The notes under the pieces: model-generated
The model's database searches: none
The model's input: only the letters and a program-made list of their open reading frames with translations
What the model was told of the DNA's origin: nothing
Translations under genes and position numbers: made by a program
In this document: positions 60,850 to 61,841 of the stretch, piece after piece
How positions within the stretch are numbered: the stretch's first letter is position 1
Layout of the letters: each line of letters begins with the position of its first letter
Source: Escherichia coli
GTDB lineage: Bacteria; Pseudomonadota; Gammaproteobacteria; Enterobacterales; Enterobacteriaceae
DNA length: 64,000 bases
Strand: one strand, 5' to 3'
NCBI RefSeq assembly: GCF_003334785.1
Contig: NZ_QOWV01000004.1

Positions 60850-61177
60850 GACTGGGTTGAACATAACGCCGATAGCAAAAGGAGTTATGTTCAACAATTT
60901 AATTTTAGATATACATATAACTTGTTCTATTAATAAATCACCTCGTATTCTGACTCGCCCCCTGGCGCAGCAAAGTCAGGCATTTATACTCTTTTGAATA
61001 CATAGAAAATTGATATCAATATAATGAAAATATCAAATATTTGCATATAAATATAATCTTAAAGTTCAGTCTATTTAATGTTCAATGAAATATTTCTGCC
61101 TGTATAATCTTTAAAGATGTTGAACATATATTCACATTAAATATGATTATGTACTTGTTACAAGGATAAGGTTATAT
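60850..61177 (+). promoter_or_regulatory. AT-rich yraH upstream region with two perfect TATAAT hexamers (about 61052 and 61103) and four copies of a TGTTCAA/TTGAACA motif
   Basis: Read directly; inverted repeat gttgaacataa(N17)ttatgttcaac at about 60857-60895. Confidence 0.45.
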
Positions 61178-61762
61178 ATGAATAAAGTTACAAAAACAGC
61201 TATTGCGGGCTTACTTGCGCTTTTCGCAGGTAATGCCGCTGCAACCGATGGTGAAATAGTTTTTGATGGCGAGATTTTAAAATCCGCTTGTGAAATCAAT
61301 GACTCTGATAAGAAAATTGAAGTTGCTCTTGGTCACTATAATGCCGAACAGTTTCGTAATATTGGCGAGCGTAGCCCAAAAATTCCATTCACTATTCCTT
61401 TAGTTAACTGCCCAATGACTGGGTGGGAGCACGATAACGGCAACGTTGAAGCGTCTTTCCGTCTATGGCTGGAAACGCGAGATAATGGCACCGTCCCTAA
61501 CTTCCCTAATCTGGCAAAAGTAGGCTCTTTTGCTGGCATAGCGGCAACAGGTGTGGGTATCCGTATTGACGATGCGGAAAGCGGAAACATTATGCCACTG
61601 AATGCTATGGGCAATGATAACACGGTTTATCAGATCCCGGCGGAATCCAATGGTATTGTCAATGTTGACCTCATCGCTTACTACGTATCAACCGTAGTTC
61701 CATCAGAAATCACCCCAGGGGAAGCAGACGCTATCGTTAACGTAACGCTGGATTACCGTTAA
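61178..61762 (+). CDS. yraH: Fimbrial major subunit-like protein YraH, 194 aa
   Basis: Signal peptide; chaperone-usher pilin-like. Confidence 0.85.
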   Translation: MNKVTKTAIAGLLALFAGNAAATDGEIVFDGEILKSACEINDSDKKIEVALGHYNAEQFRNIGERSPKIPFTIPLVNCPMTGWEHDNGNVEASFRLWLETRDNGTVPNFPNLAKVGSFAGIAATGVGIRIDDAESGNIMPLNAMGNDNTVYQIPAESNGIVNVDLIAYYVSTVVPSEITPGEADAIVNVTLDYR

Positions 61763-61778
61763 TACGTTAGGGCGTTAT

Positions 61779-61806
61779 CTGACCTGTCAGATAACGCCCT
61801 TTTCCT
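61779..61806 (+). terminator. Intra-operon hairpin gggcgttatctgac-ctg-tcagataacgccc + TTTTCC after the pilin gene
   Basis: Perfect 13-bp stem read directly. Confidence 0.65.
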
Positions 61807-61841
61807 TCCTCTTTCTCGTTGTATCAGGTTGAAAAATAACT

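Follow-up and report, generated by a model that had tools for sequence, protein, structure and literature searches.

The spacer between agaI and yraH of Escherichia coli is the ordinary regulatory region of a cryptic chaperone–usher operon, lying between two hairpins whose roles are probably conventional. It is probably a composite of ordinary parts and not a set of operators, a reading to which its repeated TGTTCAA motifs and two TATAAT boxes had given rise. The operator reading was tested against eight diverged yraH-type loci, and it is the comparison with these loci that separates the conserved parts of the spacer from the K-12-specific ones.

The locus and its relatives

The window—the whole 64-kb stretch of DNA that was analyzed—is E. 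coli K-12-type chromosome with 100% identity. The agaI–yraH spacer within it is 400 bp long with 27% GC; yraJ, yraK, and then rsmI follow past yraI, outside the window. The features of the locus are as follows.

60022–60777, + strand: agaI, last gene of the aga operon (open reading frame list, RefSeq annotation of identical loci, and junction alignment)
60856–60908, + strand: AT-rich hairpin with arms 60856–60870 and 60881–60895 (RNA fold), followed by a AATTTAATTTTAG tail
60950–60982, + strand: GC-rich patch with a weak stem (fold z −1.9), found in the K-12-type allele only and missing in L012
61041–61066, + strand: conserved distal block, with ATAAATA at 61047–61053, then TC and AAA
61078–61086, + strand: non-conserved third copy of the motif, ATGTTCAAT, which overlaps the proximal promoter's weak −35 region
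61103–61108, + strand: proximal TATAAT, candidate yraH −10 box; 8 of 9 lineages have TATAAT or TATACT in the equivalent position
61115–61177, + strand: conserved predicted leader of about 63 nt, containing the palindrome ATGTTGAACAT (61117–61127), AACATATATTCACATTAAATA, GTACTTGTTACAAGGAT, and a ribosome-binding site (61162–61171)
61178–61762, + strand: yraH, encoding the operon's first fimbrial subunit (194 aa; Pfam Fimbrial domain)
61769–61810, + strand: yraH–yraI hairpin, stem 61769–61783 / 61786–61800, then TTTTCCTTCC
61842–62537, + strand: yraI, periplasmic chaperone gene (open reading frame list and RefSeq annotation)

The spacer is carried by 3375 of 5426 complete E. coli genomes. In most of the genomes that do not carry it, the match is limited to the final bases of agaI; in one yra-less genome that was inspected, agaI abuts rsmI and homology ends at about 60747, within the agaI 3′ end. 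A dispersed-repeat or REP-like origin of the GC-rich patch was considered and rejected, as the patch is single-copy per genome. The locus is decaying in some lineages: in an O157:H7 strain (L018 1–700), the annotation gives agaI as a pseudogene interrupted by an internal stop, and yraI bears an internal stop in strain 14EC047 (L020 1764–1798). In two further E. coli strains, IS1 sits exactly after TATAATCTTTAAAGA (window 61117/61118; L002 6418/6419; L021), which is the position of the predicted yraH transcription start, and a deletion extends from IS1 to mid-yraJ, while a third strain (H2) carries IS1A within yraH.

The comparison set consists of YraH-type genes with 44–86% protein identity, which were recovered with their flanks; loci L008–L011, whose translation did not give the query protein, were left out. 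Identities refer to K-12 YraH.

L012: 86%; past a partial upstream gene that aligns to the agaI 3′ end
L006: 84%; Salmonella-labelled assembly, past a gatR-like DeoR-family gene
L014: 57%
L024: 53%; Escherichia sp., past an agaI-type gene (glucosamine-6-phosphate isomerase family)
L015: 52%; E. coli, past agaI, with a 1047-bp spacer
L016: 51%; Salmonella assembly
L017: 50%; Citrobacter, past an agaI-type gene
L022: 48%; Klebsiella
L005 and L023: 44% and 47%; Ewingella type, next to ompR-envZ

A scan of species-representative genomes with YraH turned up nothing but an Ewingella relative plus one 2.2-kb contig from a Xenorhabdus assembly. This contig (L004, 2233 bp, Xenorhabdus szentirmaii) encodes the last 85 YraH residues with 100% identity to E. 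coli and probably stems from E. coli DNA that contaminates this assembly.

In Escherichia and Citrobacter (L015, L017, L024), the yra-type operon lies past agaI or an agaI-type gene, and in the Salmonella and Klebsiella assemblies (L006, L016, L022) it lies past a gatR-like DeoR-family gene. Given these two neighbor contexts, the operon seems to be a long-standing resident, frequently lost or exchanged, rather than a recent insertion. In L006, the yraH coding region (3001–3537) is 94% identical to K-12 at the nucleotide level, whereas in the upstream region (2529–3000) identity falls to 76% close to the gene and the sequences farther up are unrelated, which points to a recombination breakpoint near the start codon. 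In the Ewingella-type lineages (L005 1263–3361; L023 1–911), a yra-like operon is divergently adjacent to ompR-envZ; this is the ordinary housekeeping pair and gives no evidence of a dedicated regulator.

The probable control region of yraH

Judged from the alignments, the part of the spacer under purifying selection is 61041–61177, a segment with one well-conserved −10 box. K-12 and L012 are 87% identical in 61099–61177 and 85% identical in 61041–61066, against 64% at four-fold degenerate sites, 60% in the agaI hairpin, and 46–62% in the rest of the spacer. Within the distal block, ATAAATA is found in nine of nine lineages (K-12 type, L012, L006, L014, L015, L024, L016, L017, and L022), which comprise Escherichia, Citrobacter, Salmonella, and Klebsiella assemblies and whose pilins are only about 50% identical. 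The box stands 52–56 nt before the −10 box and 125–140 nt before the ATG in these lineages, and a 7-mer common to all nine upstream regions arose in 1 of 500 shuffles. The distal block, about −74 to −49 from the predicted start, is hence a candidate site for an activator or for H-NS nucleation.

Both TATAAT boxes that the first-pass annotation had pointed out are present (TATAATCTTAAAG, 61052–61064; TATAATCTTTAAAG, 61103–61116), and they fare differently in the comparison. The distal TATAAT (61052–61057) belongs to the K-12 type only—relatives carry TATTAT, TACATT, and others—and overlaps the conserved ATAAATA. The proximal one, 65–80 nt from the ATG across the nine lineages, is the best candidate for the yraH −10 box and would place the transcription start at about 61115. 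Three candidate −10 boxes can be named (61046–57, 61103–08, and 61142–47), and the preference for the second comes from conservation only; the supplements of four studies (PMC10301672, PMC4782308, PMC10469882, and PMC7132871) list no yraH start site. A −35 hexamer matching at least four of six positions is absent for both perfect TATAATs in a two-hexamer promoter scan. Lacking a good −35, the proximal −10 box would make a weak promoter on its own, which is probably dependent on an upstream-bound factor.

The leader RNA folds no better than its shuffles (z −0.3), and no Rfam family matches at the locus even at an E-value of 1. The conserved boxes may resemble an RcsB box, IHF, Lrp, and Fis sites, an UP element, and a CsrA site at ACAAGGAU; the GA that is essential to an RcsB box is missing, however. 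Two ACAT cores exactly 10 bp apart in the leader (GAACATATAT / TCACATTAAA, 61121–61140) may resemble OmpR-type tandem half-sites.

A 325-bp agaI/yraH spacer is one of 78 promoter islands, described as H-NS-bound and with genes predicted as foreign (PMC3661553, Table 1); islands of this class reportedly show little transcriptional activity for the most part and yield only short abortive RNAs (PMC3661553). In genomic SELEX, RpoD holoenzyme binds the spacer in vitro, the entry being flagged “HNS,” and a promoter TTGATA-17-TCAAAT has been proposed (PMC3946193), which is not conserved even among the E. coli alleles compared. The earlier suggestion of a cryptic, H-NS-silenced operon thus agrees with literature evidence on binding (PMC3661553, PMC3946193) and with the 27% GC of the spacer. 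Publications that pair yraH with OmpR or H-NS yielded no factor-specific binding within the spacer.

It might be argued from these data that the third and fourth motif copies matter only as −35-like TTGAAC elements and that overlapping weak promoters trap RNA polymerase and H-NS. The only two-hexamer match accepted by the scan in the proximal spacer indeed uses the fourth copy (TTGAAC-16-TATGAT, 61120–61147), and both the listing among the promoter islands and the in vitro binding of RpoD holoenzyme would fit such a trap. However, the scan finds 4 promoter-like sites in the spacer against 4.1 expected in shuffles, TTGAAC is CTGAAC or CTTAAC in close relatives, and the published promoter likewise varies between alleles, so that we consider this explanation rather unlikely. 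The yraH spacer shares with the islands of Panyukov and Ozoline (PMC3661553) that it is AT-rich, H-NS-bound, and part of their own list, but it differs in that the consensus scan returns no promoter-like excess over shuffles—the published definition scores with PlatProm—and in that 61041–61177 has the look of a normal promoter that happens to lie within AT-rich DNA.

The TGTTCAA copies and the hairpin behind agaI

The first-pass annotation had described a duplicated promoter/operator module, made up of an inverted repeat and two further half-sites that are each paired with a TATAAT box. The inverted repeat is present (GTTGAACATAA, 60856–60866; TTATGTTCAAC, 60885–60895), with a spacing of 18 nt rather than 17, and its arms extend to 15 nt with 93% complementarity (60856–70 / 60881–95). 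The two further half-sites are also where they had been placed: the third copy at 61078–61086 and TGTTGAACATA at 61118–61128. The two supposed modules differ in their build, as the half-site of the first lies 13 nt past its box and that of the second only 1 nt past its box in the reversed orientation. The motif itself is a small palindrome, ATGTT-N-AACAT, which is perfect (5+1+5) at 61117–61127 and bears one mismatch at 60887–97.

Across the window as a whole, TGTTCAA occurs 14 times where 11.3 are expected, i.e., without enrichment. Four of these 14 copies sit in the 400-bp spacer. Four copies of TGTTCAA were reached in none of 2000 dinucleotide-preserving spacer shuffles, while some 7-mer reached four copies in 43% of them. 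An 8-mer with at least four copies appeared in 2.7% of the shuffles and a 10-mer with at least three copies in 1.3%, so that the longer repeated forms are modestly unusual; an 11-mer occurring more than once, as in the TATAAT-box repeat, appeared in 41%. The local over-representation of the motif (p about 0.01–0.03) is not fully explained by the hairpin alone.

This hairpin, which contains two of the four copies, folds with −18.9 kcal/mol (z −5.9). L012 and L015 have a counterpart that shares both the outer stem (AACATAA / TTATGTT) and the TTTAATTT tail; inner stem pairs differ from K-12, with one pair exchanged on both sides from C-G to U-A. Loop and arm spacing vary between the lineages while pairing is kept, which argues for a nucleic-acid structure rather than for a protein site of fixed spacing. 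In the K-12 type, L012, and L015, hairpin and tail are placed about 80–90 nt past the agaI stop. In L015, 920 bp separate the hairpin from yraH, and about 650 bp of this interval are unrelated DNA. As the hairpin stays with agaI even at this distance from yraH, it is probably the 3′ terminator or insulator of the aga operon. As an intrinsic terminator it would be weak, owing to its large loop (10–18 nt), its AT-rich stem (G-C in only 4–6 of 12–14 pairs), and its interrupted T-run (AATTTAATTTT).

Published 3′-end data (PMC7815308) place a sense 3′ end within agaI, about 35 nt from where the gene starts (window about 60031–60056); it follows a hairpin GGCAC...GTGCC with TCTTT, which suggests termination at the agaD/agaI boundary in K-12.

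The remaining two copies are not conserved. Upstream regions contain four copies in K-12, one in L012, and two in L015, one of the latter within the agaI hairpin; none were found in the upstream regions of L006, L014, L016, L017, and L005. At the position of the third copy (61078), L012 reads TGTTTAAC and the distant lineages are unrelated. Of the palindrome at 61117, the right half (AACATA...) alone is kept, within a longer conserved stretch; the counterparts are ATGCTGAACAT in L012 and CTACTTAACAT in L006, both of which have lost the left half. Operators of a dimeric factor would be expected as dyad-symmetric sites at orthologous positions, and such sites were not found in the related regulatory regions. 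On these alignments, the third and fourth copies—in the −35 region and at +3 to +13—appear as features of the K-12 lineage without conserved symmetry. With two copies being hairpin arms of the agaI 3′ flank and the other two not conserved, the duplicated module finds no support.

A narrower version of the operator reading would confine it to the K-12-type allele: the ATGTT-N-AACAT copies would bind a dimeric regulator, and the copy at +3 to +13 would join with the pair 230–260 bp upstream in repressing yraH via a DNA loop, as in gal, ara, and deo. We consider this improbable. The perfect palindrome at 61117–61127 and the near-perfect one at 60887–97, the rarity of a thrice-present 10-mer in shuffles, and the overlap of the copies with the predicted start and the −35 region all speak for it. 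So does the invariance of all four copies in the four E. coli alleles compared, which at 96–98% overall identity has little power. Against it stand the loss of the palindrome in the closest diverged relatives (L012 and L006) and the absence of any copy in five other lineages, as well as the upstream pair, which is a hairpin of varying loop and arm spacing with pairing kept and which stays with agaI and not with yraH. Moreover, the locus has no neighboring regulator gene.

A perfect 11-bp inverted repeat, TATGTTCAACA, at 60886–96 and 61118–28 flanks a 221-bp segment that contains the TATAAT boxes and lies just upstream of the fimbrial subunit gene—reminiscent of fimS of type 1 fimbriae, where short perfect inverted repeats likewise bound a segment (about 220–310 bp) upstream of a fimbrial subunit gene. 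An invertible, phase-variable promoter is nevertheless next to impossible here: a synthetic flipped allele was searched in 5426 E. coli genomes and found in none, that is, in 0 of the 3375 that carry the spacer, with no place covering at least 80% of it, while 3350 genomes show the orientation seen here; in contrast to fimS, there is also no adjacent recombinase gene (the neighbors being agaI, yraH/I/J/K, and then rsmI), and the repeat is not conserved in relatives. A Dam/Lrp switch of the pap type, with which the spacer shares an AT-rich fimbrial regulatory region and repeated short motifs, is impossible as there is no GATC site between 60689 and 61632; papI/papB-like genes are missing as well.

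The yraH–yraI hairpin and the silent operon

In the pap, fim, fan (K99), and daa operons, a stem-loop past the major subunit gene determines the stoichiometry of the subunits, giving more pilin message than assembly-gene message. The yra operon resembles them in bearing a strong hairpin in the 79-nt gap between its first subunit gene and the chaperone gene, but differs in its T-run, which is short in K-12 and absent in some relatives. The first-pass annotation had seen a terminator with a perfect 13-bp stem at this place; a strong hairpin with a T-run is confirmed, while it lies about 10 nt farther to the left and its stem is longer than 13 bp. It begins 7 nt past the stop codon, has 15 complementary bases of which 14 pair (7 G-C) around a 4-nt loop, and folds with −25.3 kcal/mol (z −5.4). 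The scan classifies it as terminator-like: its tail TTTTCCTTCC has only four consecutive T (TTTTCC) but satisfies the scan rule of at least five T in eight.

A hairpin right after the pilin gene is found in every lineage folded. In close relatives the stem sequence is kept, with G-U-compatible changes only, and in L014, L015, L017, and L005 the sequences are unrelated. The attenuator idea gains from this equal placement, which fits a classical pilin-gene attenuator or stabilizer, and the yraH hairpin is probably a partial terminator or a 3′ stabilizer of the pilin message. Since the T-run is short or, as in L017 and L005, absent, stabilization might matter as much as termination, and it may even be the main role.

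No sense 3′ end at the agaI or the yraH hairpin appears in the PMC7815308 supplement. This is uninformative, as expression of these two operons was not to be expected in that experiment and yraH is reported to be cryptic. The same supplement lists a strong antisense RNA 3′ end inside yraH (about 61537–61597, minus strand) and a bicyclomycin-sensitive antisense 3′ end inside yraI (about 62505, minus strand), which fits spurious transcription in H-NS-covered DNA. Concerning regulators, predicted GalR sites fall within the yraH and yraI coding regions (PMC5110547). A 2.7-fold change of yraK with RcsB (PMC2731931) and the induction of yraH along with many other cryptic fimbrial genes by BolA overexpression (PMC4337573) are weak hints of upstream regulation.

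Taken as a composite of ordinary parts, the spacer probably works as follows. Its left third would be the aga 3′ flank, whose hairpin at 60856–60908 would stop or stabilize aga transcripts and shield yra from read-through, and its middle would be fast-evolving AT-rich filler. The right 140 bp would form the real yraH control region, with the ATAAATA box some 60 bp before the predicted start, the −10 box at 61103–61108, and a leader of about 63 nt with its ribosome-binding site. H-NS coats all of this AT-rich DNA, which is silent in laboratory growth. The yraH hairpin would let part of the transcription into the chaperone and usher genes or protect the 3′ end of the pilin message—and either role would lead to more pilin message than assembly-gene message.

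The finding has little import beyond the locus. A tempting operator reading is removed as unsupported, and the distal inverted repeat now counts as part of the aga operon's 3′ end. The ATAAATA box, deeply conserved and with its fixed spacing to the proximal −10 box, offers a modest new lead. That it serves as docking site of a widely conserved regulator in nine yra-type operons is a tentative idea, which we hold to be less likely than its opposite; if true, this regulator would be an anti-silencer or activator that binds near −60 and switches on an otherwise cryptic family of fimbriae, and it would have nothing to do with the K-12-specific TGTTCAA copies. With the functional yraH control region narrowed to about 140 bp—a segment with a single conserved −10 box and, upstream of it, a single further conserved box—there is a defined target for finding the natural inducing signal of this cryptic fimbria.
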